Shown: positions 40,882-58,797 of the stretch, piece after piece
Layout of the letters: every line of letters starts with the position of its first letter
How positions within the stretch are numbered: position 1 is the stretch's first letter
Position numbers and translations under genes: made by a program
The notes under the pieces: model-generated
Seen by the model: only the letters and a program-made list of their open reading frames with translations
The model's database searches: none
What the model was told of the DNA's origin: nothing
From: a virus
Lineage: Duplodnaviria > Caudoviricetes
Length of the DNA: 64,000 nt
Strand: one strand, 5' to 3'
Virus record (IMG/VR): IMGVR_UViG_3300032038_000003
Span: 96,001 to 160,000 of that record

Positions 40882-43800
40882 TCACTCCGTTAGTTGTGCA
40901 AATTTATTTTCGAGCCAATTATCAGTAATTTTTGAATTATCTCTGGTAATGTTTACTTGTCCATTATTTACTCCAGATTGATTCATCATTCTCTGATAAG
41001 ATTGTGCTTGTAATTTGTTATAGCTTTGTGCAGAAACTTTAAAGTTAAAACCAGAGGCTGCATCATGGTATATTGTCTTATTCTTTAAAGCAGAAGGTAT
41101 AGATGGAGGAGCAATCTTTTTGTGTGATCGCTGTGTTGTTTGTGCATCACTTGCTTGATTGCGATACTGTAAACCATTTTTATTATTGATTTTAACACCC
41201 TTAACATCTTGTGATGTTAATTGTCTTTCTACAGAATCTGGTACTTCGACGCTGTCATTGTCTTGTTTAGTAAATAATGCATGTCCTACAAGTCCAAGTA
41301 CGGCAGCTCCACCAGCAATAGCTCCACCTATTTTAAGACGTTTTCCAGTTTCTGGAGATATATTTTTAAATGATTCACCAATTTCTTTAAGTAAAGTCTT
41401 TTTCTGTATACCTTCAGATGCTTCTCTTGCAGCTTTAGCAGCATTTTCTTTTGCTTGACTAGCAGCTTCTTCTGTAAAAGTTTTGCTTAAGTTATTAAGT
41501 GCATCTGGATTAAATACTGCCTTATAAGATTCTCTTAATGTATCTGCATTAGTAAAATCTAAGCCTATTGTGGTTGCATTCGTATTTCGATTGACAACTG
41601 ATAATATTTCTTTAGTATTTAATGCAGCTTTATATTCAAGAGAATCAGTAGCAAGTGTATTTAATGCATCGTCAATTTCGGTACGTATAGAATGAATCTG
41701 ATTGCCAGAAAGATCCAAAATTCTTGTTCCTGTAAATTGTCCATAGCCTATTCTGGCATTACTAATTCTCGTATCTAATACATCTTTTATTTTAACATTG
41801 TTTAAGCTAAGAATAAAGTCATCATTTCTGGCAAACTTATCCCATCCGAAACGATATATCATTTCTTCTTCAGCGTTTTTAGCTTGAGATAAAGACTTAA
41901 ATATATCTTTTGTGGTGTTATCAACTTCTGTCTGATATAGCTTTTTAGCATTATCAAATGCTGTAACTTCAGATGTATCAGTATTAGTAATACTATCATA
42001 AAAGTCTTTAGCGATTTTATTAACATTTTCTGTTCTTGTAGCTATTAAATTTTCTATTTCGCTAGAAATTTTATTAGACAGTTTTACTTCGTTTAAATCT
42101 CTGACTAAAAATTCATTGTTTTTAATTTTTATATTACTGTCTCTTAAATATTCAGTAATAGTCTCTTCTGCTGTATTACCAGTAATTCTGTTTTTGTTTT
42201 TATTTGGATTAGCAGCTATTTGCTTATTGATGCTACGTATTAGTTCTTTGGCATCTTTAGAACCTTCAATCATGCCGTTTTCAATGCCAAATTGTAAACG
42301 TTCATTAATATCAGTAATTCTACGTTTTAATGCTACGCTATCAGTACCAACAATATTAGCAAGAGTAGTGCCGAGTTTTATATGTGGATTGTAACCTTGA
42401 ATAATAGTAGAAGCATTAATACTTTCGTTAAATCTAGCTTCAAACGAAGCATCGTTAACGTTATCAAATAACCATTGAAGATTATTTTCTATTGTTAAAG
42501 CACCAATGTGTTTTTGTACTTGTGGTAAGTTTCCTGTTGTAATATTCCTTATGTTTAAGTTCCACTCAGGTGTATCTATATCGGTAACATTTAATAAATT
42601 ACGACCTTTATATTTCTTAATATTTTCATTAAGTTGCCTAATGGTCACTGGATTCCATTTAGGATCTATTTGACTAATAGCCTTACCTTCTTGACCAGTT
42701 AAGAAATCAAATTCGCTTAAGTTAACTTTAATCGGTCCATTTTCTTTGTCTTGAACAAACCCTTTAAAGACTAAACCAATTGGACCGTTTTTGCCAGCAT
42801 ATGTTAAAATATCACCATTTCGTAATGCTCTACCAAAAATGTTAAGTGCGTCATCGGTTTTTGACATACCAGCTTTTAGCATTTTTCTAACTGGCATATC
42901 TAATGTGAAATTACCTTTAATGAGTTCGTTCAATCCATCACTGTCTAAGTCTTGAACACCACTTAATAATTTCGGCAAATACGATGTTCTAAAAGAACTA
43001 TGGTATCCAGCATAAGCGTTTTCGTGTTGAGAAAGGTCATATAATCCGCTTAAGTAAATTTTACCAAGCAAATTAAAATCATCGGTATCTTCAGCAATTT
43101 GTAAAGCAGTTTTAAGTGATTTATTCCATTCTGTAAAAGATTTGCCCATAATTTCTTGAGCAAGTTCTGAATTGGTTTGGCTTGAATCTGCAAAGAATAC
43201 TTTACGAGCACCTTCTACTAAGTCTGTCATTGCTTCTTGTATCTTGTCTTGATTAATTTTTTCTGCACCATTGGCATTGGCAAATAATTGAGCTACACCA
43301 ATTCTCCAAGCACTTGAATTATTTAAAGTAGCAGCATCATGTACATGCTTTGTATCGATACCTTTCTGTTCAAGTAAAGTTAATAAACCGCCTGGTTCAC
43401 CATTTTCAAAAGTAAATAATACTCTTCTAATATCTCTTAATGAATCAAGTTCTTTTTTATCAGTTGCAAGACTCATCATATAAGTCATTGCATCTCTTAT
43501 TTCAAGGTTAGGCTTTGAATAATTACCGATATATTCTTTTGCTATTCTTGCTTGAATGGCAGCTTTAATCATATCTGGATTGTTAATCGAACGCCCAACT
43601 CTTTCATCAAATTGTGCAAACTGCTCTCTAATTTGTTTGGAATGTGCTATTAATAACGATTTAATATCTTTATTATCGTCTTTTAATAACAATTCATAAT
43701 CTTCTGGAGATTCATTTTTGATAGCCATCATAAAATTGTTTTCAGCATTATCATAAGCTGCTTTATCAAGGTCTTTTAATAACGAAGCCTTAAAAGATGC

Positions 43801-46800
43801 TTCATCTCCATAGCGGTAGTCTTTAATAGAATCCTTTAATGATTTCGCAAAAATATTTTTATTATGTAAATTCATATTTTCGAACTGTGTTTTCATTAAA
43901 TTATATTCAGATTCTTTATTAGCATTTTTAGCAAGTAATCCACCATTACCTAAGAATTTAATGAATTCCCGATCGCCATCAAAGTCCAGATTTTGGAGTA
44001 TAGAAAACTGAGGACCAAGAAATCTTACTTCATGTCCTTGCATTAAATCATCGAGATATATTCTTACTGGTAACACACCAGTTTCGTTAAAGAACGGATA
44101 ACGACCAGTGAGTCCAAGGATACCTACTTCTCTGGCATATCTATCTCCAACATTTTCAAATAACGAATTTATTTGCATCAAAAATGTTCTTTGATCTTCT
44201 GATGTAATACTTTTATTTAAACCATTAATACCATCGTCGAGATTAGATAATGCAAATAAATCATTAATATAAGAATTAGTTCTTTGATTAAATGTCTTTA
44301 CAGCCGTTTTTTGCTTAGTAAAATAATCTCCATGACTACTCAATATTTTGTCTATAGCATAAGCTGTATTATTTGCCCATTCTTGATGATTAGTACCATC
44401 GAATGTGGTTCGTAACTGTTGTAATGCATCATACAATTCTTGATTAGTAATATTGAATTTAGAAGCTTCGTATTGTATGCCCTTAGATAAATCATATGTG
44501 ACATTTCCAGGTGTATCTTGATAATGAAATCTGCTGATATCATCATAATGAGTTAATCCAGCACTATCACCACTGAAATAATCTTGTACTATTTGCCATC
44601 CTATATGACCAGTATCCATTTCTGTATCTTTAAACATTTGTTTACTGGTCGTAATAGCACTTTCAATAACGTCACCAATTAATACGCCATTATCATCATA
44701 ATGTCTTAAGTATTGAGCATATTTTTCATTACCAGATGTAATATTCAATAAAGAAACAACATCTGTTTTTTCATTTTTAATTTTTGCAACTCTTTCATTA
44801 AGTAAGTTTTTTCTTTTTTGATATGCTGCTGCAAGACTTTGTAATGATTTACTATTGTAACTACCAGTTTGTTCAAGTGATTTAGATAATGAATATTCTA
44901 AATTACGTATATTAGCTATATCATCAGAAGACATAGGTAAAGTAGGCACAATAGCATCTTTTGCTAAAGCACCATATGAATTAGGCATATTCATTTTGTA
45001 TAATGCTTTTGTTAATAAAGAATTCTTATCAGCAGCATTAAGTTCTTTACCGTACGCCTGAAATAAGTCTTGTAATGCACTACTAATTTTATCAGCGTTT
45101 TTAGAACCATTTACATCTAACTCTTTAAGTGTTCTAAAGAATTTTATAGTTGCTTGAGTAGACTTACCAAGGAACATATCTTCATCAGTAGTTCTTAAAT
45201 ACTGATACGGTAATACAATACCAGTCATTTTTCTGTTATTGAACTTGAATTCGCCATATTTTAATAAGTCTAAATAAAAACTATTGCTTTTATATTCTAA
45301 GCGAACACTATTATTGCCAAGTCCAGCTAATGATTGAATATAAGGAGTGTCTTTACCATCTACCCTAAAGATAAAGTTAGCGTATGCTTCTGTCCCAGCT
45401 CCTTTATGTATTCTTGATAATAAGTCTTGAGCGTCTACTTTAATGATATTTTTAGCGTTAATATCGAATTTACCATTGATGTAATCTATAGCATCAAATG
45501 TACCAGATACCATTCTTGATTCAAATTCTGGAGATAAAGTACCTCTTCTTGAACGTACAATATCAGACCATGTACGGTCTATATTTTTTAAACCAACACC
45601 AGCAATTGTTTTATCATATGTTCCATTTTGAATACTGCTTCTAATATGTTCTGCAAGTTTAGCACCATTACCATTAACATAATCACCAGTATCTTGCATT
45701 ACAAGAGCTTGATACAATCTTTGGTCCATTTTAAATGCTTGACCTTCAAATGTATTCATTTGCTGTCTTTGAATAGACTGTAATGCAATATTGTTCTGTT
45801 CAAAATAATCAATTGTTTTAATAGCTTCTTGTGCAATAGCATTATTACTTTTTCTTAACGAATTAACTAAAGCATCAAGTCGATTAATAGATTCATTATC
45901 CATTGGATTATCGAACATTATTGCTCCAGAAATTTCATCATAAGAAAGATGATCTCTTAATTCTTGATTGATTATTTTATAAAATTCGCTCTTTTCAAAG
46001 CCGTTTTTCTGAATATCATCTTTAAATGTTGAGGCAATAATATTCCATCTTGAATCAATAGATGTATCGCTTAAGTGTTTAAAAATATTATTATCAAAGA
46101 TAGCAACCGTCTTGAATTTTGTTTCATTTGGTGCAATTGCATCCATTACTAAATCTGTATATCTATTAAGTAGCCTAACGTCTTCTTTAAAATCGCCAGT
46201 TGTTTTAAGTCCAACAGACTCTAACGTTTGTTGTATTTCTTTTACTCTTTCGTTAGCATCCATAGACATATAATAAGAAAATGTTTCTGCTGTAGCTTTT
46301 TCTTCGCCAGCCATTATCTTAGTTCCTTCTAATTGACGTTCTACTATAGCTTGTGTTTTACCAGTGCTCATTAATTCAACGGCATTCTTTTGTGTAAATT
46401 CAGGAACAGTTTGGCCTTTATAAATAATATCTGTAAATTTACCATTACGGTTCAATTTTCTACCAATGACAGTACCGTTTTCTAATTTGTTGCCAATCAA
46501 TTGATTTAATACATTAGCAGTTTCTTGTTGTTCTGTTTCAGTACCAATTTCAAAGATAGACTTAATTTGAGGAGAACGAATATTTTTTGGATCTCCAAGA
46601 ACAAAGAATTCTTGGTTGGCTATTGAAGGTCTAATATATGCCTTGCCCTCGTATGTATTAATATCGTTTACCATACGGCGGTAAACTTTTATTGCCGCTT
46701 CTTCATCTAAATCACCAAGATTACGTTTAATATACTCTATGGCTTTAGATTCATTAGCACGAATCTCTGCATCACTAATAGACTGCACAGCACCAATAAT

Positions 46801-49800
46801 ATTTCTACGGGAAATATTTTGTGCGGTTACAGCCTCTCCAGCTTCCTTTAAGACTTGTGTATCCATCATTCTTATACTATCAACTTCTTGTTTGGTAGTA
46901 TAAACATCACCAAAGTTAATACCAAGTCTTGTTTGTAAATAATCTGTGTCTGTAAAAAAATGTTCATCTAAGCGATAAGAACGATAGTTTCCTCTCTGCG
47001 TATATGTAGGACGGATAATTCCAGATGATCCAGAGTTATTCATCATACCAGGATTCCAATTATCTATATGCATCATCATTTTATGAGCAAATGATTCAGA
47101 ACCAACGGCATCTAATCCAGCTTCATAAGCAAGTAAATGTAATGCATTACTTAAGTCTTTAGAAATAATATTATTGTCTTCTGATGCTTTAGATAATATC
47201 TGTAAGAAGCTATCACCTTGTAATGCTTTAATGGCATTTATTTCAACATCTTGTAATCCATGTGTATTTGTGCCATTAATAATACCTTCTATAATATTTC
47301 TATCAGAACCTATACCGTCAGTTTGAGAGGTTAAATATCTTTGATAGAAATGCTTAAATGGTTCAGAATCATAGACAGAATTAATAGCAGATTGATTAAA
47401 AATCTGAGTTTTATCTTCTGCATATATTAAATTATATTCATCATTAAAGGCTTTAAAAATACCTCTTAATGCGTTTTCTGCCTGTACAGATTTTCCATTG
47501 GCAGCATTATATCCAGCATCAGAAGTAAGTTTTTTAGTTAAATCTAATAAACCAAGATTGCCTTCTCCTGGATCAAGAGCAATAGTGTGAGCGTACTCTA
47601 TATCTTTAACAGATACAGAATGACGTTTAACAAAGTTGCCATGCAAATCATAAGTACCATTCATTTGCGGAGAAGCTTCATCCGACATTCTGGCAATATT
47701 AGGATTATTAAGTAAAGAGATTGCCCTTCTGTAATCGCCAACAGAGTTTGCTTCAAGAGCAGGCTGCATTCTTTGTCTAATGCTTGTTAAATAGCTACCA
47801 CCCTGGTCTTTAATTCCCCCTTTGATAACACCATCTTTTTCATACATATTCAAGGATAATGTATCATATCTGTAAAAGTTATCACCTTGTTTAACAAGTA
47901 CCGCTCTTGCTCCATGTCCACCGCTCCACTTACCGTCAGCGTCTTTAACGCCGCCAGTTAATTTACGAATAGTATCATTTTCTTCAAGGTTAAATACTTT
48001 AAGATATGGAATTTCAAGATATGAAGCTTTACCTTCTAACGCTTCTTTAATTCGTCTATTAGATGCGTTGCTATCTAAGTTAGATAGTGTCTCGTAAACG
48101 CTACTATAATCCTTGTCTCTTGTGAAAATAGCAAACGCAGAGCCATCTTTTGTTTGTGACTTAAAGAATAAAGACCGTACTGCGTCTTGCCCGTTTTCAA
48201 GGTTTTTATTATATAAAGCTATATTTGATTTTCCTTTATAATTAGTATAATAAATAGTGCTATATTCATTAATGCTTTCATCGTCATAATTCATAGAACG
48301 CAAAACGTCTCTAATTTTAGAAAAATTATCAACGTCTCGTCCATTGACTTTAGTAATATCAAAATTATCTTTTATTAAAACAGATTTGCTTAAGCGATTA
48401 ATATTTTCTGTCGTTTTTGTTTTAACTTCATCAGATAATTTTCCAGTAACAAAAGCCATATTAGAAGTAGCACTTTCAAGCAATATACTACCTTTGTCTT
48501 TATTTTGAATAAATTGAAGTGTCTCAGGATGAATGCCATAAGTCTGGGCGACTTCATCAATAGAGAATCCGCCATCTAATAATTCTTTAACATCTCCAAC
48601 AGTTTGATATCCCAACTTACGCACAGGCACACTATTAGCACTCATATGCGTAACAATAGATTGAGCAATAGAATATGCTTGGCTGCTTGCTCCATGTGTC
48701 TTTTGAATTACAAATCCATGTGTCTTTTGAATTACAGATAAGTCTTCTGTTGTTAACAAACCGTTTTCTTTTAAGGTTTTGGCTGCACCAAGAAGTTTAT
48801 CTGCTACTTCAGATTCAGACATTCCTTTTTGACGATATGTGTTTAATAACTGTCTTGAACCTTTATTAATATCTTCTACGTTAATTCTGGCATAGCTAGA
48901 ACCGTTAGGGACCATGACAGAATTTAAGTCGTCGATTGTATATGTCTTTCCGATAAAAGGTTTTGTGCTGGTTGCGGTTTTTAAATAATCATCACGCATC
49001 GTACTAAATGCAATAGTACGAGAAAGGTTTGTATCTATTTTAGTAATTTCGCTATTTGCAAATGAAAAGAACTCTTTATTTGCATCAAACATGTTAAAAG
49101 TTTGTTGCATAATTTTACGCTCATCATATCTTCGTATGCCAGCTTGATATGCAGTAAGTGATTGAGCGACTTTAGAGTTTCTAAAATGTGATGTAATGCT
49201 ATCTATTTGATTTTTGTCTGCATAGTCAATAATATTAGTAATATTATTGCCAGTACTAATATTAGAAAGCATTCCAGCAACAGTCTTAATTTCTTTACGG
49301 TTAGTATCTAATAAATGCATAGAAGAAACAGCCTCGTCAGATAACGAAGCTAAATCTTGATACATTTTATAATAATTTTGAAAGCTGGCAAAACCACCAG
49401 CTTGTACTGTTTGACCATTACTACGATACGCAGAAACTTGTCCGACATCAAAGAAACCGTCTATGACACGCCTTGCGATATCTCTGTCATGAATGGTATT
49501 TTGTAAATCAATATTGGCTTCTGTTTGATGCACTAAAGAAGTATGGTTTGTAAGCCATGCTTTAAAATCAGCTTCTCCTTCGAATGCTTTAAATAAAGTA
49601 GCTCCTGAATTGTTAACGGATTCAAATCTTGCAAGGTATTTATTTGATGTTTTTGCAATAGTATGATCGTTCCATTCAAGACCGTCATATTGTGTAGAAC
49701 CGACACCACTGAATTTCCAATATTGATTAGATACTGAATATCCAGTAGTAGCTTGACCATCAATTACTACAACGTCTTGAGAACGAATATTACCTTTAGA

Positions 49801-51057
49801 ATTAATCTTTACATAAGAGTTATTTAAAGTAATACTGTTAGGCTTATTAGTAATTTTATTTAATAAATTTATTGCTCTTTGAACAATATTAAAGTGTGAG
49901 GTGTCATCAACAGATCCTCCAACATGATTAAATAATTGTAATGTAGCTAACGAGTCTTCATAAGCATTATGAGCAAGAGACTGCGTATATCCAATACTAC
50001 TTGTCATTGCTTCTGTAAATGCTTCAAGTGAGCCAAGTCTATTATTAGTAACACTTGGGTTTATCTGTTTTACTAATTCACCAACTGTAGCATTATTAGC
50101 ACTCGCCCATGCTCTTAATGCAAACATAGAATCTGCATATTGAAAGTTGTTTGATAAACCTTTAAAACTATGCATACTAGCATAGCGATTCATTGCATTA
50201 ACATCATATTCAAGATTCTGTCCTATAATGGCTCTATTATTTTTTTTATTTTTAGTAAATCCATTAATATAAGATATTAATTCTTCTATCTGTGTATCTC
50301 TATTAGGATTATAGTGAGAAGCCATATTTTCTATACCAGACTGTATATCTTTAATACTGTCTGGATTAGAAATATTAAGCTGATTTACAAAAGTATAAGT
50401 CTTGCCATTCCATTCTCCCTGAAAAGTTGAAAATCCATGAGATCCAAGCGTACTATGACGAGACGCTCTTTCCATAGCAGATTTTTCTGCATCTGTCAGT
50501 TTTTGACCGTTAATCTTTTTCTGCAATACATCTTCAAGCCACTTTTTCTGCTTAGAGTCTATACCAAAAAAGAAAGACCCTGGTGGATTTGTTACTGTAC
50601 GAGCATTACTATAGTTTTTGCTAATAGCCCCCTTATGATGTTCAACGGCAAAGCCTATTTCTGTAATACCAATATTTTCAACAGCTCTTCTTTCGGCTTC
50701 ATCGTTTGATAATAAATTACCAGCAAAGTCACCTATTGTTTCTGTATCGAAGGCAAGGATATTACCACCATTTTTCATGATTTTATCCAGTGCCCACCAT
50801 GCTTTTCTATTATCGTATAGATTATTTTCTGCTCTGTGTAATACAAAATTAAATGGTTCATTATCCCATTTTGCTTTACCTATATTTGTTAAACGTTGTG
50901 CTACAAATACATCACGAGCAGCCCAATAGTCTTCTGCGTCAGTTGTGCCTGTAACTTCCATAAACTTATCCATTGGCGTCCATTGAAGGTCTGGATTGTT
51001 CATAAAAGCAAATGTATTTGGTGCTGTGTAATTACTTCCAAATAATGTAATTGGCAT
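40882..51057 (-). CDS. Giant tape-measure-locus protein (3391 aa): DEDDh exonuclease plus putative single-chain two-barrel RNA polymerase
   Basis: Exonuclease motifs FDTET, GQNLEYD, AHNAYED. Polymerase motifs TYEG, GTKIMAGEEK, GRYP, NLDFDGD (43972-43992), KEYIG, EQKGIDTKH. C-terminal hydrophobic GGAIAGGAAVLGLVG. Confidence 0.75.
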   Translation of the reverse strand: MPITLFGSNYTAPNTFAFMNNPDLQWTPMDKFMEVTGTTDAEDYWAARDVFVAQRLTNIGKAKWDNEPFNFVLHRAENNLYDNRKAWWALDKIMKNGGNILAFDTETIGDFAGNLLSNDEAERRAVENIGITEIGFAVEHHKGAISKNYSNARTVTNPPGSFFFGIDSKQKKWLEDVLQKKINGQKLTDAEKSAMERASRHSTLGSHGFSTFQGEWNGKTYTFVNQLNISNPDSIKDIQSGIENMASHYNPNRDTQIEELISYINGFTKNKKNNRAIIGQNLEYDVNAMNRYASMHSFKGLSNNFQYADSMFALRAWASANNATVGELVKQINPSVTNNRLGSLEAFTEAMTSSIGYTQSLAHNAYEDSLATLQLFNHVGGSVDDTSHFNIVQRAINLLNKITNKPNSITLNNSYVKINSKGNIRSQDVVVIDGQATTGYSVSNQYWKFSGVGSTQYDGLEWNDHTIAKTSNKYLARFESVNNSGATLFKAFEGEADFKAWLTNHTSLVHQTEANIDLQNTIHDRDIARRVIDGFFDVGQVSAYRSNGQTVQAGGFASFQNYYKMYQDLASLSDEAVSSMHLLDTNRKEIKTVAGMLSNISTGNNITNIIDYADKNQIDSITSHFRNSKVAQSLTAYQAGIRRYDERKIMQQTFNMFDANKEFFSFANSEITKIDTNLSRTIAFSTMRDDYLKTATSTKPFIGKTYTIDDLNSVMVPNGSSYARINVEDINKGSRQLLNTYRQKGMSESEVADKLLGAAKTLKENGLLTTEDLSVIQKTHGFVIQKTHGASSQAYSIAQSIVTHMSANSVPVRKLGYQTVGDVKELLDGGFSIDEVAQTYGIHPETLQFIQNKDKGSILLESATSNMAFVTGKLSDEVKTKTTENINRLSKSVLIKDNFDITKVNGRDVDNFSKIRDVLRSMNYDDESINEYSTIYYTNYKGKSNIALYNKNLENGQDAVRSLFFKSQTKDGSAFAIFTRDKDYSSVYETLSNLDSNASNRRIKEALEGKASYLEIPYLKVFNLEENDTIRKLTGGVKDADGKWSGGHGARAVLVKQGDNFYRYDTLSLNMYEKDGVIKGGIKDQGGSYLTSIRQRMQPALEANSVGDYRRAISLLNNPNIARMSDEASPQMNGTYDLHGNFVKRHSVSVKDIEYAHTIALDPGEGNLGLLDLTKKLTSDAGYNAANGKSVQAENALRGIFKAFNDEYNLIYAEDKTQIFNQSAINSVYDSEPFKHFYQRYLTSQTDGIGSDRNIIEGIINGTNTHGLQDVEINAIKALQGDSFLQILSKASEDNNIISKDLSNALHLLAYEAGLDAVGSESFAHKMMMHIDNWNPGMMNNSGSSGIIRPTYTQRGNYRSYRLDEHFFTDTDYLQTRLGINFGDVYTTKQEVDSIRMMDTQVLKEAGEAVTAQNISRRNIIGAVQSISDAEIRANESKAIEYIKRNLGDLDEEAAIKVYRRMVNDINTYEGKAYIRPSIANQEFFVLGDPKNIRSPQIKSIFEIGTETEQQETANVLNQLIGNKLENGTVIGRKLNRNGKFTDIIYKGQTVPEFTQKNAVELMSTGKTQAIVERQLEGTKIMAGEEKATAETFSYYMSMDANERVKEIQQTLESVGLKTTGDFKEDVRLLNRYTDLVMDAIAPNETKFKTVAIFDNNIFKHLSDTSIDSRWNIIASTFKDDIQKNGFEKSEFYKIINQELRDHLSYDEISGAIMFDNPMDNESINRLDALVNSLRKSNNAIAQEAIKTIDYFEQNNIALQSIQRQQMNTFEGQAFKMDQRLYQALVMQDTGDYVNGNGAKLAEHIRSSIQNGTYDKTIAGVGLKNIDRTWSDIVRSRRGTLSPEFESRMVSGTFDAIDYINGKFDINAKNIIKVDAQDLLSRIHKGAGTEAYANFIFRVDGKDTPYIQSLAGLGNNSVRLEYKSNSFYLDLLKYGEFKFNNRKMTGIVLPYQYLRTTDEDMFLGKSTQATIKFFRTLKELDVNGSKNADKISSALQDLFQAYGKELNAADKNSLLTKALYKMNMPNSYGALAKDAIVPTLPMSSDDIANIRNLEYSLSKSLEQTGSYNSKSLQSLAAAYQKRKNLLNERVAKIKNEKTDVVSLLNITSGNEKYAQYLRHYDDNGVLIGDVIESAITTSKQMFKDTEMDTGHIGWQIVQDYFSGDSAGLTHYDDISRFHYQDTPGNVTYDLSKGIQYEASKFNITNQELYDALQQLRTTFDGTNHQEWANNTAYAIDKILSSHGDYFTKQKTAVKTFNQRTNSYINDLFALSNLDDGINGLNKSITSEDQRTFLMQINSLFENVGDRYAREVGILGLTGRYPFFNETGVLPVRIYLDDLMQGHEVRFLGPQFSILQNLDFDGDREFIKFLGNGGLLAKNANKESEYNLMKTQFENMNLHNKNIFAKSLKDSIKDYRYGDEASFKASLLKDLDKAAYDNAENNFMMAIKNESPEDYELLLKDDNKDIKSLLIAHSKQIREQFAQFDERVGRSINNPDMIKAAIQARIAKEYIGNYSKPNLEIRDAMTYMMSLATDKKELDSLRDIRRVLFTFENGEPGGLLTLLEQKGIDTKHVHDAATLNNSSAWRIGVAQLFANANGAEKINQDKIQEAMTDLVEGARKVFFADSSQTNSELAQEIMGKSFTEWNKSLKTALQIAEDTDDFNLLGKIYLSGLYDLSQHENAYAGYHSSFRTSYLPKLLSGVQDLDSDGLNELIKGNFTLDMPVRKMLKAGMSKTDDALNIFGRALRNGDILTYAGKNGPIGLVFKGFVQDKENGPIKVNLSEFDFLTGQEGKAISQIDPKWNPVTIRQLNENIKKYKGRNLLNVTDIDTPEWNLNIRNITTGNLPQVQKHIGALTIENNLQWLFDNVNDASFEARFNESINASTIIQGYNPHIKLGTTLANIVGTDSVALKRRITDINERLQFGIENGMIEGSKDAKELIRSINKQIAANPNKNKNRITGNTAEETITEYLRDSNIKIKNNEFLVRDLNEVKLSNKISSEIENLIATRTENVNKIAKDFYDSITNTDTSEVTAFDNAKKLYQTEVDNTTKDIFKSLSQAKNAEEEMIYRFGWDKFARNDDFILSLNNVKIKDVLDTRISNARIGYGQFTGTRILDLSGNQIHSIRTEIDDALNTLATDSLEYKAALNTKEILSVVNRNTNATTIGLDFTNADTLRESYKAVFNPDALNNLSKTFTEEAASQAKENAAKAAREASEGIQKKTLLKEIGESFKNISPETGKRLKIGGAIAGGAAVLGLVGHALFTKQDNDSVEVPDSVERQLTSQDVKGVKINNKNGLQYRNQASDAQTTQRSHKKIAPPSIPSALKNKTIYHDAASGFNFKVSAQSYNKLQAQSYQRMMNQSGVNNGQVNITRDNSKITDNWLENKFAQLTE
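48691..48736. repeat. In-frame 24-bp tandem duplication (VIQKTHG-F-VIQKTHG)
   Basis: tccatgtgtcttttgaattaca occurs twice with a 24-nt period. Confidence 0.9.
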
Positions 51058-51068
51058 GTAAATCTCTC

Positions 51069-54000
51069 CTAACTATAATTAAGATTCTTAATCTGGTAAT
51101 CTACTTCTGATCTGGTATCCTGTCTAATATTAAAGTCAGATGAATCACCATTTATACCATTCATATAAGAGACTTGGACACTATTTAAACCGTTACTGCC
51201 TAATATTCTGGTTAATTGTGCCTGTACTCTTCTTGGGTCATTACGAGTTCTTATTTTTGGAATAGGGATATTAACTTGGTCAGCTTTCCGTTTGTTATCA
51301 GTCCAGATATCAAATTCACCAGGATCTAATCCGTTAGCATTGACCATCTTAATCTTAACATCTTCAAGATCTGTATCTTCTTGCCATCCTACCCAATTTT
51401 CATCTGGTAATGCATGATTTTTAAAGTATTCTGTAAGCTCTGGTTTTTCGTCAACATGCATACCCCAAGAAGCTTGTAATGCCCGTCGTAAATAACTTGG
51501 AGCTATTCTAAGTATCTTTTGCTTTTCTTCTTCTGGTGCTTCTACTAACTTAGAATAATATTGTCTTTCTTTCTTAGGTAAAGCAGCCATTATATTTCTT
51601 ACATCGTCACCAGGATCATATCCGTACATAGTACGTTCTGCGGCCTGTTTATAAGAAATAGCTTTAATAGCATTTAATGGCAATTTTTCTACTTTTCTGT
51701 CATTAGATATCTCAGCAAGTTCTTTATTAATAGCTCTTACAACTTCTTTTTTGGATTGCCCTTTTTCTTCATATTTAGGCTCTCCATACTTAAAATTATA
51801 ATTACCACGATGCTTGAAATCAAGTTTAACAAGGCGTTTGTAGTTGTTTAATTCTTGCTGTCTAGCCTTATTATCTTCGCCTTTTTGCTCTTGTTTTTCG
51901 ATATATGCATCAACATCAAAGTGATCTTTCTTTTTAGCGAGTTCCTTATATTGATTGTAAAGTTTAGTGTTTTTAACATATTTAAGGGTATCAATATAAG
52001 TATTCATTTCTTCTTGCTGTCTACGTCTCTTAGGTCTCCATTCACGATCCTTATTAGAACCAAGATGATGTATAGTAGTTCCTATAGCTGGCACAGCAGC
52101 ACCAAATATGGTAGCGATCATTTTACCGTATGGGCCTTTACCCATCATGCTACCAAGAAATGCACCGCCAACAATAGCACCAATTGGATGTTGAGAAGAC
52201 AAGTCTTCTACAGTAGGAACTACGAAATCTCTAATAGGGTGATTCCAAGATTTGAAATCTTTATTATACACTTCACGTTTACGGTATTGTTCATAAGGAC
52301 TTCTAATCTGGAAGAACTTATCACCTATAAACGGTAATTTAGATGCACTATGAGTTAAGGTCTCCATCATAGAACCAAAAGCTATATCTCCTTTGGAATA
52401 TCTTGCATGGATTCCAGCTGGAGAATCATCGGTTTCTTTCTCTTTAGCAAGACCTTTATCAAGCATACGTCTATTAAGATTAGTACCTTTTGCATTAACG
52501 ATAGCCCTAATTGACTGTGTAGAGTCTTTATTATATTTGTTACGTTCATCAGCATCATATTGAATGGTAATACGTTGACCAGGCTTGAGATACTTTCTCA
52601 ATTCGTCATTTGCAGCTTGGTTCATTGTTTTACCAGTTCTAACTGTACGCTCTCTACCAGTAGCCTTATTAATTTCTTTCTTTTCTTTAACGGTAGGCTT
52701 ATATAACGTACTATTGGACTCTGAAACATTAATGCCAGCAAATTTAATAGCGTGTTCTTTACCATATTCGTTAACAATAATGGTATTATTATCTATTATC
52801 TCTTTAACGGTAACCTTTTCTGATTTTAAGTTTGCTGTCTTAAACTTATAATCATATACTCTTAAAGGTTCTTTTTGCTCCTGCATACGCTCACGAGCAG
52901 CTTTGACTTCTTTCTTTTCTGCTTCTGATAAATGAGCATGAGAAACTTGAGCAGATATATCTTTAAACTCTTGAGAGTACGGAGCAGTATCTGCGAGTAT
53001 TTTGTATTTCTCTACAAGAGAATATAAATCTCCTCTTGAGATTTCGCCTGTCTGTAAACCAGTATATATATCTTTCTTGGCATCATTAAGATTTTGGATA
53101 CTTGAGCGTAAATCTTTTTTATTAAATCTTACTCTTGCTTTATATATATCATCTGGGTTTTCTTTATCATAATAATAAACATAACCTCTGCCCTTGGTAT
53201 TATTTAAAGCATATAAATCATAATTCATTTCGTAATAATCTTGATTACGAATATTATGACCTTGCTGGAGTCTTTTGAATTCGTCAGAACTTACGCCTCG
53301 AATATTAATCAAAGACTCTCCAGTGCGTGAATGATAATCTTTTATTCTTGCATCTACAAGACCAGATATATCATGCTGAGCGTCATTAAATTTAATTCTT
53401 GAACCCAATAAAACATCTGCATCTCTAAAATGGTCTAATATTTTAGAGACAAACTCTTCTACTTGATTAAGATTTTGGATATCATATTGGTCGTTAGTAA
53501 TTTCTTTAGGACGCTTATCACGTTTTAATGATTTGATATCTTCTTCTTGCTGATACGTTAAGTTAGTATCTTGATGCAAGAAATGTCTTACATGTGCAGA
53601 ACGTGAGTTGCCAATCATGCTGGCACTAATATTAAAGCTGAAATCTATATTGTTTAATCGCTCATATCCTTCACCTGGGAGCCTCTCTTCGCCATTCATG
53701 ATTTTAGAATAAGGATCGCCGTGTAAATAATCAGTAAAGTAATTAGATCCTGGCATCCAAGTAGGCATAGTATTCCTGATAGGATTTAAAAACTTTGTAT
53801 CGTTATCTCTTTTATGAATGAAACGACGAGAGATTTCCGAAAGTTCTCCGCCTAAACCACCAAGGTTCTGATTCCAAAATGATCTGTTCGCAGAATAAGC
53901 ATAACTTGATGTCTCTACTTTAGTAGAGCCAATGTTCTGCTCGCCAGTAAACATAGATTGAATCAAGAAACCTTTTAAACCATAGATATTAGCAATATCG

Positions 54001-57000
54001 TTAAACTCTTCTCCGATATTCCATAAAATATCATTATCGGTTTTTTGTGATTCTTCTTCTTGATATCCTTTATCATATTCGTTTATACTAATACGCTGAT
54101 TAGTACCATAAATCTTATTTAAAGAATAATGTTTAATCTCTTCGTTGACTTTATATAAGTTAAGATTTTCTGGCACGTCAACAACAGATATGCTACCAGA
54201 TGGAGTAGTATAAACATCTAATGCAGTATCGTAACGATTATAATCTCTATAAGGTAATGTAGATGATTGTAATGGGCTTGCATATTCTTTTGCTTTAGTA
54301 AATAATCTTTGCTGAAAATTCTCTGCATCTGAATATGGTAATGTTCTTACAACATCTAACTTACCAGGAGTATTAGGATTATAAGCAACGGTATATGTTT
54401 TTAAGGCATTATCGTACAACGGTGTTTGTTTAAACTGAGTAAATGTATTATTAGTTTGTGGTGTACGAGCCTCTGTTAATGTTTTAGCTGTAAATAAGTC
54501 TAACAATCTTTGATTAGCAGCTTTATGATATTGTTCTTGAGTCTTTGTATTAATTTGATTGAATGTGTCTGTATCTATAAAAGCTTTTTCTAATGTCTTT
54601 AAAATATCGTTTATAAAGCCAGTTTTTGCTTTTGCAAAACTAGACTGACCAGTCATTAATAACTGGCTAGGTTTTTCATCTTCTGGATTAACAGTTTTTA
54701 AAGTACCGTCTGGATTCCAATATTCTTTGTGCATCTTATGACGGTATACCTGTCCTACAGTACCAGATACTAATGGACCAATCAAAGGAATATTTTCGCC
54801 TTTGGCAGCAGTTTCTGCATATGGTCTATCGTTATAATGCTTTTTATCCCAATGATTCGGGTCAGTAATAAAATGTCTGATAGGAGCTAATGGACTTACT
54901 AAATTAGGATACCAAGTATTTTGATAATATTCTTTACGAGAACCATACATGGTATCGCTATATTTAACATCAGCCTCTATACGACGATATATATTAGGTC
55001 TCCAGTGGTCAATTTTTGCACCAGTAAAAGGAGTATTAGAAACAGACCAGTAACGATTTTTACGTACTGGATCGTATCCTTTTTCGATATATTCCTTACG
55101 TTCTTCTGCTGTTTGACCAAGACCTAATTGATATATTCCAGGTAACTCATTAAACTGATCAGATCCTGGTGTCATTTCTTGAAGATACTTAAATATCTTT
55201 GTAAATCCTAATGTGTCACCAAGTTTGTGTGCTCCTATATCAATAGGTTTCACAACGTCTCGCATTAATGTTTTACCAAGAGTATCAGTTTTACCTTGTT
55301 CACGTTCCTCTTTACTAGTAAATAATGGCTCAGAGAAATAGTTAATCATACCAGGAATCTGAGTTAACATGAATACTGGCAATGCTCTTTTTACTAATAA
55401 ATTTCCAACTAATGCTCCAGTAGAACGTTTAGATTTAAGACTCAATCCCAATCCAATACTAGCAAGACCAGAATCGAGTACATTAAATACATCGTACAAT
55501 GTAGAAGATTTTTCATTAAAGTATTTCCCCATTGTACCATCTGCTTTGAAACCAGAAAAACGCTGTCCAAAAAATCCTTTAAGATCATCTACGAATTTTT
55601 CTTGATTTTTATCTTTTGTATCTTGTATTAAATCGCTAAAGTTAATACCTTGTTTTGTTAATATTATGTTTTTCCCATGTACTTTTGTACCATTTTTAGT
55701 GATAAAATCATCAAAGCCTTTACCAAATGCCATGTTATATGATTTATCTCTAATATTAGATGCAGCTTCTTCGTAAGTAGCATATTGAAAATTGTCTGTT
55801 TTAAATAAATTAGAATGAGAAACTTTATCTAATAAATCATCAAAAGTATTGTCTGGGTTAAATGAATCACCTATATTTCCAGCACCACCATCACTAAGGC
55901 TTACAAATTCTTGATGTCCAATATCTAATATATCACCAATTCTTTTTCTAATTTTTTGGCTAAATGTTAAGTTAGCAAAAGGAATGTCTTCTCTAACATC
56001 TTTATTAAGATGATAGTTAGCCATTTGACGCATTGTTTCTACGTGATGAGGCATTTTAAATTTTTTATCTACATCTGAAATATCCCAAGCATCAAAACCA
56101 GAACCTATAAACTCTTTAGTACCTCCAGTACCAAGAGCATAAAGGTCTCCATCTGCAAATAATAAATGAAATGTTTCGTCAAAATTATTAAATCTTTTCT
56201 GAAGAGCGGTATTTATATCATCACCTATTCTACCGCCTTTACCAGAAATATATGGTGAATAATTACCAACACCATTGATTAATGCAAATGAAGTATCTCT
56301 ACGGTTAAACATATTGTCTAACGGAGTGACTTTAATAGCACTATCAATAGGGTTAAATCCTAATACTGGTAAACCAAAATCTTTTCTTATAGAGTTAGTA
56401 AAGAATCTTAAGGCATCTTCGCCCATCATATAGTTAATAATATTGTCGCCTTTTGCATTGATGTTTAATGCTGGATCTATAATAAATTTCTTCCAGACAT
56501 CATCAAAGTTACCTAATGCACCTATTTTATCGCCTTGCTGATAAAGATAATTCGTATTAGTAAGAAAGCCTGTCATAGTTTGTAATACAGTTCTTTCGTC
56601 TTTACCAACGGTTTCGTTAAGATTTATTTTAAATTCATCAAAGAGTCTCTTTTCGTTAAAGCCTTCTTTAAAAATTAATTTCTTTTCTTTTTTGTCAATA
56701 CCTTCGAAGATATCTCCAAAGGTGAGCGTCTTATATCCAGTGTGTTTAATCTGATACTGAGCTGCTTCATCAGTTAATGAGATACGACGAATAAAACGCT
56801 CCATTAAATCGGCACTAACACTATTTCCAGACTGATTTAATCCAGCTCTGTCAATACTACGCATAATATCATTCATTTCGTATGTGTGTTTAATAAAGCT
56901 AGATTCTTTAATACTGGCATTACGATGTTTAATTCTTTTTCGTCCATCTTCCATTAAAGCATTTGTACGTTCTTTTATAGTACGTTTAATAACATCTTTT

Positions 57001-57533
57001 GGTTGACCATCCATTTCTTCCATAATGGATTTACGTAACGCTTTAACTTCTGCTGTAGTATAACCTCTTGTGTCTTTTTCAATCATTTGATTGAGAATAT
57101 CTAAGTCTGCAACGGTATCATTAATAATACGTCTGGTATTAGTTGTGTATAATTGACCTCTTGCAAATGATTCTTTTAAATCTTGCCATAAATCATATCC
57201 AAGAGAAGAAGCTTTTTTAGCATTAAATAAGCTATGATCTGGACGCAGAAATTCTCCAGTATGACCATTAGCCCAGTTTTTCATAGCTTTTGAACGATGA
57301 TATCCTTGATTAGAAGACATTTCTGCAAAGGACGCACCTACTTCTTTCATTTTGCTTGCAATAGGGCGTAAAGCACCACTCTTGTATAAAGCTACACCGC
57401 CAGCAATTACAAGGCCAGCAGTAATAGCTTTTCCAAGAGTATCATTTTGATTTGCATCCTGTTTATCATCTATTGTTTGATTAGTAAGCAAATTACTATT
57501 GTTTTGCCTTAGTTTTTTGTTCTCTAAAGCCAT
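51069..57533 (-). CDS. Tape-measure-like/ejected protein (2154 aa) with degenerate PD-(D/E)XK (Cas4-like) and thermonuclease-like domains
   Basis: Directly follows the chaperone pair and has hydrophobic GxxxG segments. ISASMIG...ISGLVDARI...INIR...EMNYDL...GYVYY; VKEIIDNNT...IKFAGINVSE...NLNRRMLDKGLA. Confidence 0.7.
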   Translation of the reverse strand: MALENKKLRQNNSNLLTNQTIDDKQDANQNDTLGKAITAGLVIAGGVALYKSGALRPIASKMKEVGASFAEMSSNQGYHRSKAMKNWANGHTGEFLRPDHSLFNAKKASSLGYDLWQDLKESFARGQLYTTNTRRIINDTVADLDILNQMIEKDTRGYTTAEVKALRKSIMEEMDGQPKDVIKRTIKERTNALMEDGRKRIKHRNASIKESSFIKHTYEMNDIMRSIDRAGLNQSGNSVSADLMERFIRRISLTDEAAQYQIKHTGYKTLTFGDIFEGIDKKEKKLIFKEGFNEKRLFDEFKINLNETVGKDERTVLQTMTGFLTNTNYLYQQGDKIGALGNFDDVWKKFIIDPALNINAKGDNIINYMMGEDALRFFTNSIRKDFGLPVLGFNPIDSAIKVTPLDNMFNRRDTSFALINGVGNYSPYISGKGGRIGDDINTALQKRFNNFDETFHLLFADGDLYALGTGGTKEFIGSGFDAWDISDVDKKFKMPHHVETMRQMANYHLNKDVREDIPFANLTFSQKIRKRIGDILDIGHQEFVSLSDGGAGNIGDSFNPDNTFDDLLDKVSHSNLFKTDNFQYATYEEAASNIRDKSYNMAFGKGFDDFITKNGTKVHGKNIILTKQGINFSDLIQDTKDKNQEKFVDDLKGFFGQRFSGFKADGTMGKYFNEKSSTLYDVFNVLDSGLASIGLGLSLKSKRSTGALVGNLLVKRALPVFMLTQIPGMINYFSEPLFTSKEEREQGKTDTLGKTLMRDVVKPIDIGAHKLGDTLGFTKIFKYLQEMTPGSDQFNELPGIYQLGLGQTAEERKEYIEKGYDPVRKNRYWSVSNTPFTGAKIDHWRPNIYRRIEADVKYSDTMYGSRKEYYQNTWYPNLVSPLAPIRHFITDPNHWDKKHYNDRPYAETAAKGENIPLIGPLVSGTVGQVYRHKMHKEYWNPDGTLKTVNPEDEKPSQLLMTGQSSFAKAKTGFINDILKTLEKAFIDTDTFNQINTKTQEQYHKAANQRLLDLFTAKTLTEARTPQTNNTFTQFKQTPLYDNALKTYTVAYNPNTPGKLDVVRTLPYSDAENFQQRLFTKAKEYASPLQSSTLPYRDYNRYDTALDVYTTPSGSISVVDVPENLNLYKVNEEIKHYSLNKIYGTNQRISINEYDKGYQEEESQKTDNDILWNIGEEFNDIANIYGLKGFLIQSMFTGEQNIGSTKVETSSYAYSANRSFWNQNLGGLGGELSEISRRFIHKRDNDTKFLNPIRNTMPTWMPGSNYFTDYLHGDPYSKIMNGEERLPGEGYERLNNIDFSFNISASMIGNSRSAHVRHFLHQDTNLTYQQEEDIKSLKRDKRPKEITNDQYDIQNLNQVEEFVSKILDHFRDADVLLGSRIKFNDAQHDISGLVDARIKDYHSRTGESLINIRGVSSDEFKRLQQGHNIRNQDYYEMNYDLYALNNTKGRGYVYYYDKENPDDIYKARVRFNKKDLRSSIQNLNDAKKDIYTGLQTGEISRGDLYSLVEKYKILADTAPYSQEFKDISAQVSHAHLSEAEKKEVKAARERMQEQKEPLRVYDYKFKTANLKSEKVTVKEIIDNNTIIVNEYGKEHAIKFAGINVSESNSTLYKPTVKEKKEINKATGRERTVRTGKTMNQAANDELRKYLKPGQRITIQYDADERNKYNKDSTQSIRAIVNAKGTNLNRRMLDKGLAKEKETDDSPAGIHARYSKGDIAFGSMMETLTHSASKLPFIGDKFFQIRSPYEQYRKREVYNKDFKSWNHPIRDFVVPTVEDLSSQHPIGAIVGGAFLGSMMGKGPYGKMIATIFGAAVPAIGTTIHHLGSNKDREWRPKRRRQQEEMNTYIDTLKYVKNTKLYNQYKELAKKKDHFDVDAYIEKQEQKGEDNKARQQELNNYKRLVKLDFKHRGNYNFKYGEPKYEEKGQSKKEVVRAINKELAEISNDRKVEKLPLNAIKAISYKQAAERTMYGYDPGDDVRNIMAALPKKERQYYSKLVEAPEEEKQKILRIAPSYLRRALQASWGMHVDEKPELTEYFKNHALPDENWVGWQEDTDLEDVKIKMVNANGLDPGEFDIWTDNKRKADQVNIPIPKIRTRNDPRRVQAQLTRILGSNGLNSVQVSYMNGINGDSSDFNIRQDTRSEVDYQIKNLNYS

Positions 57534-58206
57534 TTAAAAGCTCCTTATTATTCCATGCCAATCCTATAATAAATGGATTATCAACCATGTTATTATTAGC
57601 ATTGACTTCTTTTTGTATTTCATCTTGAAATAGAATCAATGGGTTAATCTTTTTATTTAACGCATTCTGGATATCATCTTCGTTATGAATACTTGGTTTA
57701 TGTGTTTGCTGTTCTATGTCTTCAGAACGTTCGATATGATAATTATACCCTTGAAGATTAGCTATGTTTTCTGCACGAACAGTCATATCCATAAGTTTTT
57801 GCCATGTCCAGTCTTCCATTTCTTCGTATGTATAATCGCCAATAAATGCTTTGATTAAATCCATACATTGTTGATATAAATTGCTAGATGCTTTAGCGGC
57901 ATCATATTCATCAAAAATATCTTGTGAACTATCAAACGCAGATAGCTTTTTTAAATATCCAGCAATAACAGAAGGCAAGACGCCAAATTCACATTCTGAA
58001 AACTCGTATCCATCTGGATGTACACATGCAATATTACAAATAGCGGTTTCTTGTTTGAACTGATCAGAATACATTTTGAGTATCATTTCGTATTCTTTAA
58101 CAGTAAGTGTTCTGAATACAAAATCTTCGTTCGAAAAACGGACATAAATTAACTTATGTCCGCTGTATTCTTCTTTATAGTATTGTAATTTTTGGTCACT
58201 GATCAT
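57496..58206 (-). CDS. Tail assembly chaperone, second paralog
   Basis: FVFRTLTVKEY...ICNIACVHP...SAF parallels the neighbour. Lies directly before the tape-measure locus. Confidence 0.7.
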   Translation of the reverse strand: MISDQKLQYYKEEYSGHKLIYVRFSNEDFVFRTLTVKEYEMILKMYSDQFKQETAICNIACVHPDGYEFSECEFGVLPSVIAGYLKKLSAFDSSQDIFDEYDAAKASSNLYQQCMDLIKAFIGDYTYEEMEDWTWQKLMDMTVRAENIANLQGYNYHIERSEDIEQQTHKPSIHNEDDIQNALNKKINPLILFQDEIQKEVNANNNMVDNPFIIGLAWNNKELLNGFREQKTKAKQ

Positions 58207-58797
58207 TTATAAAACCTCGATTCCATAATCATTAGTAAAGCCAGAGTTTTCCATTATGATCTGTGCAAGTGTTCCAGGATAACCAGCGTCATCTTTACCC
58301 ATAGCAGCATAATCATAATTGTATGGAAACAGTACACATGTTTTACAAATCAGCTCTTCGTTTGTGAGCGAATCTAATGCAAGAGATGCAATTTGTTCAT
58401 ACTCTGCACGATTTAATGTTCTGAATAAAAAGTGTCTGTCTAAGATTTTAGTATGATAAATTCTTGAAACGCCGTATTGCTTTTTCCAAAGCTGTACTTT
58501 GGATACTCCAGGTCCACCTTCGAAAATTGGTGCATCGTTTGGATCTATAAAGTAATCGTCATCTTTATCATACGTCATTTCTCCAGGATAGATATCTGGT
58601 TTAGAGTCATAGTCAATCTCTCCAGTAATCTCTGGTTTAGCATCAGAATCTTGATTTTCATCATCGATTTCTGCTTCTGCTCTCAGAGATGCGTAGATAT
58701 CATCTGGAGAATCTGGTTGCTCTTCTGTAAGAGTACCGTTCTTTTCAAACTCAAGTTTTTGTTTAGCAGCCTTCATTAAATCATCGTATTCGCTCAT
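58207..58797 (-). CDS. Tail assembly chaperone
   Basis: WKKQYG...FLFRTLNRAEY...ICKTCVLFP...GTLAQIIMENSGF, with an acidic N-terminus. Confidence 0.7.
   Translation of the reverse strand: MSEYDDLMKAAKQKLEFEKNGTLTEEQPDSPDDIYASLRAEAEIDDENQDSDAKPEITGEIDYDSKPDIYPGEMTYDKDDDYFIDPNDAPIFEGGPGVSKVQLWKKQYGVSRIYHTKILDRHFLFRTLNRAEYEQIASLALDSLTNEELICKTCVLFPYNYDYAAMGKDDAGYPGTLAQIIMENSGFTNDYGIEVL

Follow-up and report, generated by a model that had tools for sequence, protein, structure and literature searches.

Few types of virion RNA polymerase (RNAP) have been characterised, namely those of N4, the crAss-like phages, phiKZ/AR9 and P23-45. The closest described system to the locus reported here is that of P23-45, a Thermus siphophage for which a tape-measure-fused virion RNAP (gp96) and a non-virion RNAP (nvRNAP; gp64) were shown experimentally (Chaban et al. 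2024, PMC10770324). Giant polymerases that are packaged in the virion, ejected and make the first transcripts are also represented by gp66 of phi14:2 (a crAss-like phage), a QDE-1-like two-barrel enzyme, and by gp50 of N4, which is a T7-like polymerase and not a two-barrel one; both are capsid/ejection proteins of podophages and not products of a tape-measure slot. None of the three has an exonuclease domain and, for gp96, the text of PMC10770324 never uses the word. Here we describe a 64,000-nucleotide stretch of phage DNA (positions 96,001 to 160,000 of the IMG/VR record IMGVR_UViG_3300032038_000003; Duplodnaviria, Caudoviricetes), hereafter called the window, which encodes a protein of 3391 amino acids (aa) that combines a predicted N-terminal DEDDh 3'-5' exonuclease with a predicted two-barrel RNAP core in the tape-measure slot of a tail module. 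The exonuclease fold and the tape-measure-fused virion RNAP were each known separately, and what is new is their conserved fusion; a literature search found no description of a DEDDh exonuclease fused to a tape-measure-slot polymerase.

The likeness to P23-45 extends over several features. Both gp96 and the 3391-aa protein are giant, occupy the tape-measure slot, carry a DFDGD two-barrel polymerase and possess a membrane-type segment towards the C-terminus, and both phages encode a second, separate two-barrel polymerase elsewhere in the genome. The role proposed for gp96, pre-early transcription at the entry pore, is the one that we propose for the 3391-aa protein. The two differ in that the polymerase of gp96 is N-terminal (residues 327-1124), whereas that of the present protein lies at residues ~1440-2640 and the N-terminus is taken by the nuclease, and in that the present phage is a contractile-tailed jumbo phage of the 0305phi8-36 type.

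The 3391-aa protein (P0001) is encoded by an open reading frame (ORF) of 10,176 nt on the minus strand (window 40882-51057; all features of the window given below are on this strand), which was delimited from the ORF list and its translation and assigned to the tape-measure slot of the tail module by synteny. The exonuclease domain lies at the 5' end of this ORF and covers residues ~85-405 (window 49843-50805). The original prediction had placed an intact DEDDh exonuclease between positions 49950 and 50760, a span that does run from ExoI to ExoIII, and translation and string searches found the residues D104, E106, D285, H363 and D368 exactly where it had put them. ExoI (ILAFDTETIG, residues 100-109, window 50731-50760) contributes D104 and E106; it is followed by ITEIGFA (residues 131-137, window 50647-50667), which corresponds by alignment and model to the epsilon-like 'EIG' strand beta2. 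ExoII (IIGQNLEYD, residues 277-285, window 50203-50229) provides N281-x3-D285, and ExoIII (AHNAYED, residues 362-368, window 49954-49974) provides H363-x4-D368. The H-x4-D spacing, as opposed to Y-x3-D, places the domain in the DEDDh subclass by its sequence.

Conservation was assessed on an alignment of 31 full-length homologues, whose mean identity to the query over the whole protein is 0.517, and all statements of invariance for this protein refer to these 31 sequences. Only 97 of the 3391 columns (2.9%) are invariant, including 21 of the 483 D, E or H positions, and all five pre-specified catalytic positions are among them, an outcome with a chance probability of ~1.6e-7 if positions are independent. 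The catalytic residues are kept in homologues down to 28% identity, and conservation along the protein is highest at residues 85-405 (mean identity 0.559 versus 0.517 overall). Around the catalytic residues, T107 and G109 of ExoI, T132 and E133 of strand beta2, G279, N281 and L282 of ExoII and A365 of ExoIII are likewise invariant, as is an additional acidic residue, D309 (in YADS, window 50131-50133), which aligns with the QKADS block of vB_BceM_WH1 gp095 (see below). At the level of sequence comparison, the catalytic set is shown to be under strict conservation, as expected of purifying selection, and the loss of catalytic residues among homologues, named beforehand as an outcome that would speak against a nuclease, was not seen.

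The three-dimensional model agrees with the motifs. An AlphaFold2 model of the exonuclease, built on the family alignment, has a predicted local distance difference test score (pLDDT) of 79.9, with block means mostly between 79 and 97 for residues 81-400. In this model ExoI lies in the first strand, beta1 (residues 98-108), ITEIGFA in the strand 130-141 and ExoII at the opening of the helix 282-295, so that D104 and E106 are on the first strand, D285 at a helix start, H363 in a loop and D368 in the next helix, as in known DEDDh enzymes. When the model was compared by VIA-align with 48,161 chains, all of the best 50 matches were DEDD exonucleases (Z 8.0-12.2, spanning model residues 88-406). 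They include 9qpc, a DNA polymerase of 1213 residues that matched through its exonuclease domain (residues 410-608; Z 12.2, 190 residues aligned), the exonuclease of Staphylococcus aureus DinG (Z 11.4, 180 residues aligned), Cas2-DEDDh (8fyc_K; Z 11.4, 164/164 aligned) and Escherichia coli epsilon (1j53; Z 11.4, 172/174 aligned, root-mean-square deviation 3.4). Foldseek against the PDB also returned DEDD exonucleases for nearly all of the 50 matches listed, the exceptions being three low-probability rows of the Hsp70 family; its E-values are weak (5e-3 and up), with probabilities mostly of 0.75-0.99. Foldseek against BFVD agrees, the best viral structural match being A0A7R7G2L5_1, a 1257-residue piece (E 4e-7). 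The three methods point to the RNase H-like DEDD fold whose absence would have spoken against the original prediction, and the full DnaQ/RNase T-type catalytic set that it proposed is borne out by motifs, conservation and predicted fold together. Residues ~85-405 are, on this combined evidence, confirmed in prediction as a divergent DEDDh 3'-5' exonuclease with an intact catalytic set, and their predicted shape appears closest to the DNA-acting enzymes of the epsilon/PolC/DinG type.

Known enzymes align in VIA-align with 160-200 of the ~320 residues of the domain, and the remainder corresponds to a conserved, family-specific insertion of ~130 residues (residues ~142-274, window 50236-50634, delimited by alignment and model) between the third and fourth core strands (beta3 and beta4). 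The insertion bears the blocks GSFFFGID, QKxWLE and SAMERASRHSTLG, with S161, G165, R197 and G241 invariant, and is composed of helices and a beta-hairpin; the elements modelled with high pLDDT are the helices 168-182, 189-200 and 235-266 and the extended segment 210-226. Compared with DnaQ/epsilon-type DEDDh enzymes (1j53, the PolC type, S. aureus DinG, Cas2-DEDDh), the domain shares the RNase H-like fold (Z 11-12 over 164-190 residues) and the motifs D-x-E, the 'EIG' strand, N-x3-D and H-x4-D, but it differs by the insertion, by the invariant D309 and by the lack of a significant sequence-profile match. Its partner also differs, as the present domain is fused to a virion-type protein of 3000 residues and not to a DNA polymerase, a helicase or a Cas protein.

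The divergence of the domain is evident from the sequence searches. The RNase_T profile search that the original prediction had called for came back empty, as Pfam gave no match for residues 1-460 at E <= 1, and Pfam RNase_T had no match in the whole 210-kb genome. Among 21 homologues, two touch Pfam RNase_T (best E 0.032), DEDDh_C (2.3e-5) or DNA_pol_A_exo1 (0.01). The single, weak PHROG match covered residues 229-386 (E 1.4e-4) and was to phrog_192, 'DNA polymerase exonuclease subunit'; neither phmmer nor the family hidden Markov model (HMM) found anything meaningful among PDB sequences, and tblastn of residues 1-460 and of residues 400-3391 gave no match among GenBank phages. Since Pfam is silent, recognising the domain requires structure or a family alignment. 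Because Pfam RNase_T does not match the 3391-aa protein and few homologues touch it, we file the domain as a new divergent family at the superfamily/fold level and not as a member of PF00929.

A word-indexed search found 23 homologues of the protein, and HMMER, run exhaustively over 1.84 billion representatives, found 15. All are 3300-3650 aa long except for two short, fragment-like proteins of 242 and 291 aa, and on these sequence matches the exonuclease domain is never a free protein in the exhaustive search. The co-occurrence of the exonuclease and DFDGD motifs, which the original prediction had suggested checking, was found in every full-length homologue and also, in a variant form, in vB_BceM_WH1 gp095.

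The polymerase core starts ~1000 residues after the exonuclease and covers residues 1440-2639 (window 43141-46740). Its AlphaFold2 model has a pLDDT of 81.8 and a predicted template modelling score (pTM) of 0.79. In Foldseek, QDE-1 and beta' chains of bacterial RNAP took ranks 1-18, and of the 50 rows listed almost every one was a beta' chain; in VIA-align the top 14 matches were all two-barrel RNAPs (Z 6.7-10.0), among them maize RDR2 (ZmRDR2, 10.0), Mycobacterium tuberculosis beta' (8.3), the AR9 nvRNAP (8.2) and QDE-1 (7.7), and phi14:2 gp66 matched with a Z of 6.4. The best structural matches of the predicted core are accordingly of the RDR2/QDE-1 type. The solved gp96 fragments were not among the 50 structural matches listed for the core, and the two polymerases may still be related. 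As these Z values are middling for a 1200-residue model, the assignment rests on the motifs and on the uniform identity of the matches. The beta-like barrel carries the lysines of GTKIMAGEEKAT (K1580, E1586, K1587; K-x6-K; window 46291-46326), and the beta'-like barrel carries R2319-Y-P2321 followed after ~36 residues by NLDFDGD (window 43972-44103), in which a string search places DFDGD at residues 2358-2362. Nine positions (E1470, K1580, E1586, K1587, R2319, P2321, D2358, D2360 and D2362) are invariant in 31/31 sequences and match the two-barrel RNA polymerase signature listed by Ruprich-Robert and Thuriaux (2010, PMC2919709). Sequence searches of the PDB and PHROG found nothing for the core, which was identified by structure and motifs only. 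On the model and the motifs together, residues 1440-2639 are soundly assigned as a single-chain two-barrel RNA polymerase core, and the earlier view that the exonuclease is linked to a putative RNAP within a structural protein agrees with a core of this kind on the same chain, encoded in a tail gene slot.

A second, free-standing two-barrel polymerase gene lies outside the window on the plus strand of the genome record (G000:C1:3147-5861; locus L006:148-2862) and encodes a 904-aa protein with the motifs RSP...ADFDGD. It is homologous to ORF099 of 0305phi8-36, a 'hypothetical DNA-directed RNA polymerase' (tblastn E 1e-19), and the 0305phi8-36 polymerase has been termed YonO-like (Iyer et al. 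2021, PMC7824862). Judged by sequence, the phage would encode two polymerases, one in the giant tail-slot protein and one free, and the 904-aa YonO-like gene is likely the non-virion partner of the former. The 904-aa protein is also homologous to Enterocloster phage proteins, one of which is annotated as an RNA-dependent RNA polymerase.

The gene for the 3391-aa protein belongs to a virus genome record of 210,314 bp. A giant DFDGD protein had at first suggested a crAss-like phage, an identity that was rejected because the tail tube genes and one virion protein match the Bacillus jumbo myophage 0305phi8-36 and its relatives and because the tail module has the gene order of 0305phi8-36; by these sequence matches the phage is a relative of 0305phi8-36 and not crAss-like. 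The gene order of the window parallels orf140-147 of 0305phi8-36, with the tail tube, a chaperone pair, the gp145 homologue, the 3391-aa ORF and the gp147 hub homologue in succession. The tail tube paralogues correspond by sequence to orf140/141, and the candidate tail chaperone pair (236 and 196 aa, window 57496-58797), whose genes have PHROG families phrog_29362 and phrog_29368 in common and were read as paralogues, corresponds by position to gp143/gp144. Upstream of the 3391-aa ORF, a 2154-aa protein (window 51069-57533) is a BLASTP homologue of the virion protein gp145 (34% identity over ~1050 residues, E 4e-173); downstream, a 2038-aa protein (window 34759-40875) is a homologue of the baseplate hub gp147 (BLASTP E 2e-64 and 2e-59). 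The 3391-aa ORF occupies the gp146 slot between them, and the same tail gene order surrounds distant homologues, including the most distant one. By gene content this position, from tail chaperones to baseplate hub, is the tape-measure slot.

The product of the corresponding gene, gp146 of 0305phi8-36, is a 'hypothetical tape measure protein' according to its record, which also notes its detection in virions by mass spectrometry, and by this positional equivalence the 3391-aa protein is probably located in the virion. A canonical tape measure protein is length-determining and largely helical, without globular enzymes; at least 1500 of the 3391 residues are predicted by the exonuclease and polymerase models to form compact enzyme folds. 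Similarity to gp146 is confined in BLASTP to the C-terminal tail (residues 3257-3387, window 40897-41289), where ~130 residues align weakly, C-end against C-end, with an E of 0.006. This limit agrees with Hardies et al. (2007, PMC2147016), who found the tape-measure-slot genes of the 0305phi8-36 lineage alignable in the last 60 residues only. Overlapping the start of this tail is a hydrophobic, Gly/Ala-rich candidate membrane segment (residues 3243-3262, window 41272-41331), which contains the only 19-residue windows of the protein above 1.4 in a Kyte-Doolittle scan. The region after the nuclease (residues ~400-825, window 48580-49857) has invariant positions of its own (D428, G451, D526-x2-R529-R530, G555, F663, T681 and D710). 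No support was obtained for a known domain, such as a DNA polymerase, immediately behind the nuclease, since profile searches with residues 400-950 against the PDB and Pfam gave only chance-level matches, except for a faint helix-turn-helix signal at residues 824-858.

Some further observations concern the genome and its tail tube genes. The genome consists of one block of plus-strand genes and one of minus-strand genes, and the contig ends fall within the plus block; no terminal repeat is present in the 210-kb record, and the physical genome ends are probably collapsed in the assembly. A 540-aa tail-tube paralogue (window 60703-62325), homologous to 0305phi8-36 gp141, matches several PHROG endolysin families in its C-terminal residues ~350-440, and a neighbour of a close homologue carries Pfam PG_binding_1; its sequence suggests that the 540-aa protein combines a tube-like part with a module that binds the cell wall. 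In the RefSeq record NC_009760.1, the tail tube protein and its paralogue (ORF140/ORF141, L001:3319-5661) are both entered as 'major head protein', although the notes of that record read 'tail tube'. The wrong name has passed on to PHROG 9206, an annotation error that is potentially misleading.

Two proteins of related phages occupy the same slot. The first is gp095 of the Bacillus phage vB_BceM_WH1 (2515 aa, L007:14593-22140, minus strand), a 'virion structural protein' whose record has no stated function and which is flanked by chaperones, gp096 and the hub gp094 in the same order. Its N-terminal exonuclease is homologous to the present one, insertion included (hhalign E 2.2e-4 over 247 columns; motif blocks FFDIENIG, GGQNINTYD, QKADS and ATHMALQD), and its RYP...DHDGD barrel aligns with R-Y-P...NLDFDGD (hhalign E 1.3e-4). 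The protein is shorter (2515 versus 3391 aa) and has diverged beyond detection by tblastn. A literature search on vB_BceM_WH1 found no paper. Phage Edson is an apparent close relative of vB_BceM_WH1.

The second is gp146 of 0305phi8-36 itself (P0034; L001:14624-22237, plus strand). Its family of nine sequences has invariant mid-protein blocks at residues ~1223-1690, namely DIETTG (D1223, E1225), GQNVAxAD (D1446) and HxAxxD (H1685, D1690), with a long helical insertion between the second and third, and two of eight members touch Pfam RNase_T (E 0.006); a DxDGD motif is found in none of the nine. These blocks seem to form a DEDDh-like set, a lead at the level of sequence motifs. Homology of this set to the exonuclease domain was not significant by hhalign, which with default and relaxed settings aligned ExoIII only (E 0.015-0.04, probability 1-3%). 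If the set is real, its presence in a family with no DxDGD would argue against the nuclease as a mere accessory to the fused polymerase; of the two, the polymerase may be the part of the slot protein that varies and the nuclease the more constant one.

The N-terminal module is modelled as a catalytically competent DnaQ/epsilon-like exonuclease of a giant tape-measure-slot protein, and the reading that we favour has it act in cis, alongside the polymerase, on the 3' ends of DNA as the genome enters; this reading, which draws on analogy, seems to us about as well founded as it is open to doubt. The 3391-aa protein would be assembled into the tail and, as analogy with tape-measure proteins and with P23-45 gp96 suggests, be ejected at infection with its C-terminal end first. 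The C-terminal part, with the hydrophobic segment 3243-3262 and the lineage-conserved tail, would lie at the tail tip and leave first, and the N-terminal nuclease, nearest the head and adjoining the leading DNA end, would enter last. Held by this tether, the nuclease could act in cis on 3' ends, resecting or trimming the entering genome end. A narrower version, in which the nuclease strips one strand so that the polymerase obtains a single-stranded template, is possible but should be taken as tentative. Resection would then expose single-stranded DNA that the QDE-1/RDR-like virion polymerase could copy, or on which it could load, for pre-early transcripts, the first transcripts would be made without a promoter-melting factor, and at a later stage the separate YonO-like polymerase would replace it. 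For recombinant gp66, single-stranded or denatured DNA is a far better template than duplex DNA (bioRxiv 10.1101/2020.03.07.982082), and it is this preference, with the resemblance of the core to RDR2, QDE-1 and gp66, that suggests that a strand-stripping nuclease could supply the template.

Several points weigh against such a cis-acting role. Nuclease and polymerase are separated by ~1000 residues with no assigned fold, so that functional coupling is not implied by proximity, and Pfam RNase_T does not match the 3391-aa protein. Where the genes at an end point inwards, a 3'-5' nuclease would destroy the template strand instead of exposing it, and resection would be expected to be useful only at an end with outward-pointing genes. 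As the contig breaks inside the plus block and has no terminal repeat, gene orientation at the genome ends lends the proposal no support. The DEDDh-like set of gp146, which comes with no DxDGD, suggests at the level of sequence a polymerase-independent role. Folded enzyme domains would also have to fit into or pass through the tail tube, a difficulty shared with P23-45, and the activity, the substrate and the presence of the 3391-aa protein in the virion rest on prediction and analogy.

The explanation that competes best is that of an anti-host or anti-defence nuclease, delivered with the virion and perhaps freed by proteolysis, which from the first moment of infection would degrade nucleic acids with free 3' ends such as nicked host DNA, molecules like multicopy single-stranded DNA (msDNA), linear oligonucleotide signals or host RNA. 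An intact and strictly conserved nuclease would suit this role, as would delivery with the virion before phage gene expression, which the tail slot suggests; the structural matches include nanoRNases and defence-linked exonucleases (Orn/REXO2, Cap18, TREX1), and the DEDDh-like set persists in the gp146 family where the polymerase motif is missing. We nevertheless consider it unlikely, because the exhaustive search never returned the domain as a free protein and because, unless cleavage releases it, the tether to a giant protein with a membrane-type segment would hold it at the entry site. Moreover, it is established enzymology that DEDDh enzymes depend on a free 3'-OH and are unable to open cyclic nucleotide signals, and the few copies that a virion could hold at most would be a poor means of attacking host nucleic acid in bulk.

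An established and classic arrangement in proofreading enzymes (PolA, PolB, PolC) is likewise a DEDD exonuclease at the N-terminus with the polymerase behind it, so that the exonuclease might trim or proofread the product of the fused two-barrel polymerase, either RNA 3' ends, as for coronavirus nsp14 ExoN, or DNA if the polymerase makes DNA, as for PolD. Coronavirus nsp14 ExoN and the arenavirus NP exonuclease are DEDDh enzymes that serve the viral RNA-synthesis machine or remove immune-stimulating RNA; they are separate proteins of eukaryotic RNA viruses with RNA substrates, and their likeness to the present domain is at most a functional analogy. The co-occurrence of exonuclease and DFDGD motifs in 31/31 homologues, the similar pairing of an exonuclease with DHDGD in gp095 and the polymerase-associated exonucleases among the closest structural matches would fit such 3'-end editing. 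Against it, ~1000 unrelated residues lie between the domains, the motifs R-x-P and NxDFDGD of the polymerase belong to the RNAP type, two-barrel RNAPs cleave transcripts in their own active site and none is known to use a DEDD proofreader, and the exonuclease motifs seem to be retained in the gp146 family, which lacks that of the polymerase. On balance we regard editing as quite improbable.

The DNA-acting character of the nearest structural neighbours would also be compatible with genome-end recombination, in which both long terminal repeats are resected after entry and then anneal, so that the genome is circularised or concatemerised and its ends are hidden from RecBCD/AddAB-type nucleases. 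The record of 0305phi8-36 is annotated with 6479-bp direct terminal repeats, and, by geometry, 3'-5' resection of the two ends would leave complementary 5' strands. Annealing, however, needs more than one repeat length resected in total, which would be slow for a tethered enzyme, and a second copy must reach the last-entering end; no terminal repeats are resolved in the present genome record, and in phages that rely on repeats for this purpose, expression of the nuclease normally follows entry. Such a role is, in our judgement, very improbable. That the domain is a non-catalytic relic, its fold retained only for a structural or nucleic-acid-binding function in the tail protein, is scarcely credible even though Pfam fails to recognise it and a large insertion interrupts the fold, given that inactive DEDD domains typically lose catalytic residues and that the five residues here and the flanking G/T/N motif positions are invariant down to 28% identity in a protein with only 2.9% invariant columns.

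Virion RNA polymerases explain the host-independent start of transcription in some phages, and the family described here adds a strictly conserved, predicted 3'-5' exonuclease to a polymerase of the tape-measure slot. In 0305phi8-36-like phages, enzyme cargo is concealed behind the 'tape measure' label, and neither domain is picked up by standard profile libraries. As the lineage includes cultured Bacillus phages (vB_BceM_WH1 and Edson), the role of the nuclease is directly testable, with vB_BceM_WH1 gp095 as a practical experimental model. Should nucleic acids of the host or of its defences be the target, the exonuclease would represent a novel form of pre-loaded counter-defence; should it proofread for a two-barrel polymerase, this would be an even rarer variant. 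If, as in the favoured reading of a cis-acting role at genome entry, the genome end is resected and then transcribed, the domain would be the first nuclease built into a virion RNA polymerase as a template-preparing partner, and template preparation of this kind would answer how single-chain QDE-1-like polymerases reach a double-stranded genome in vivo.

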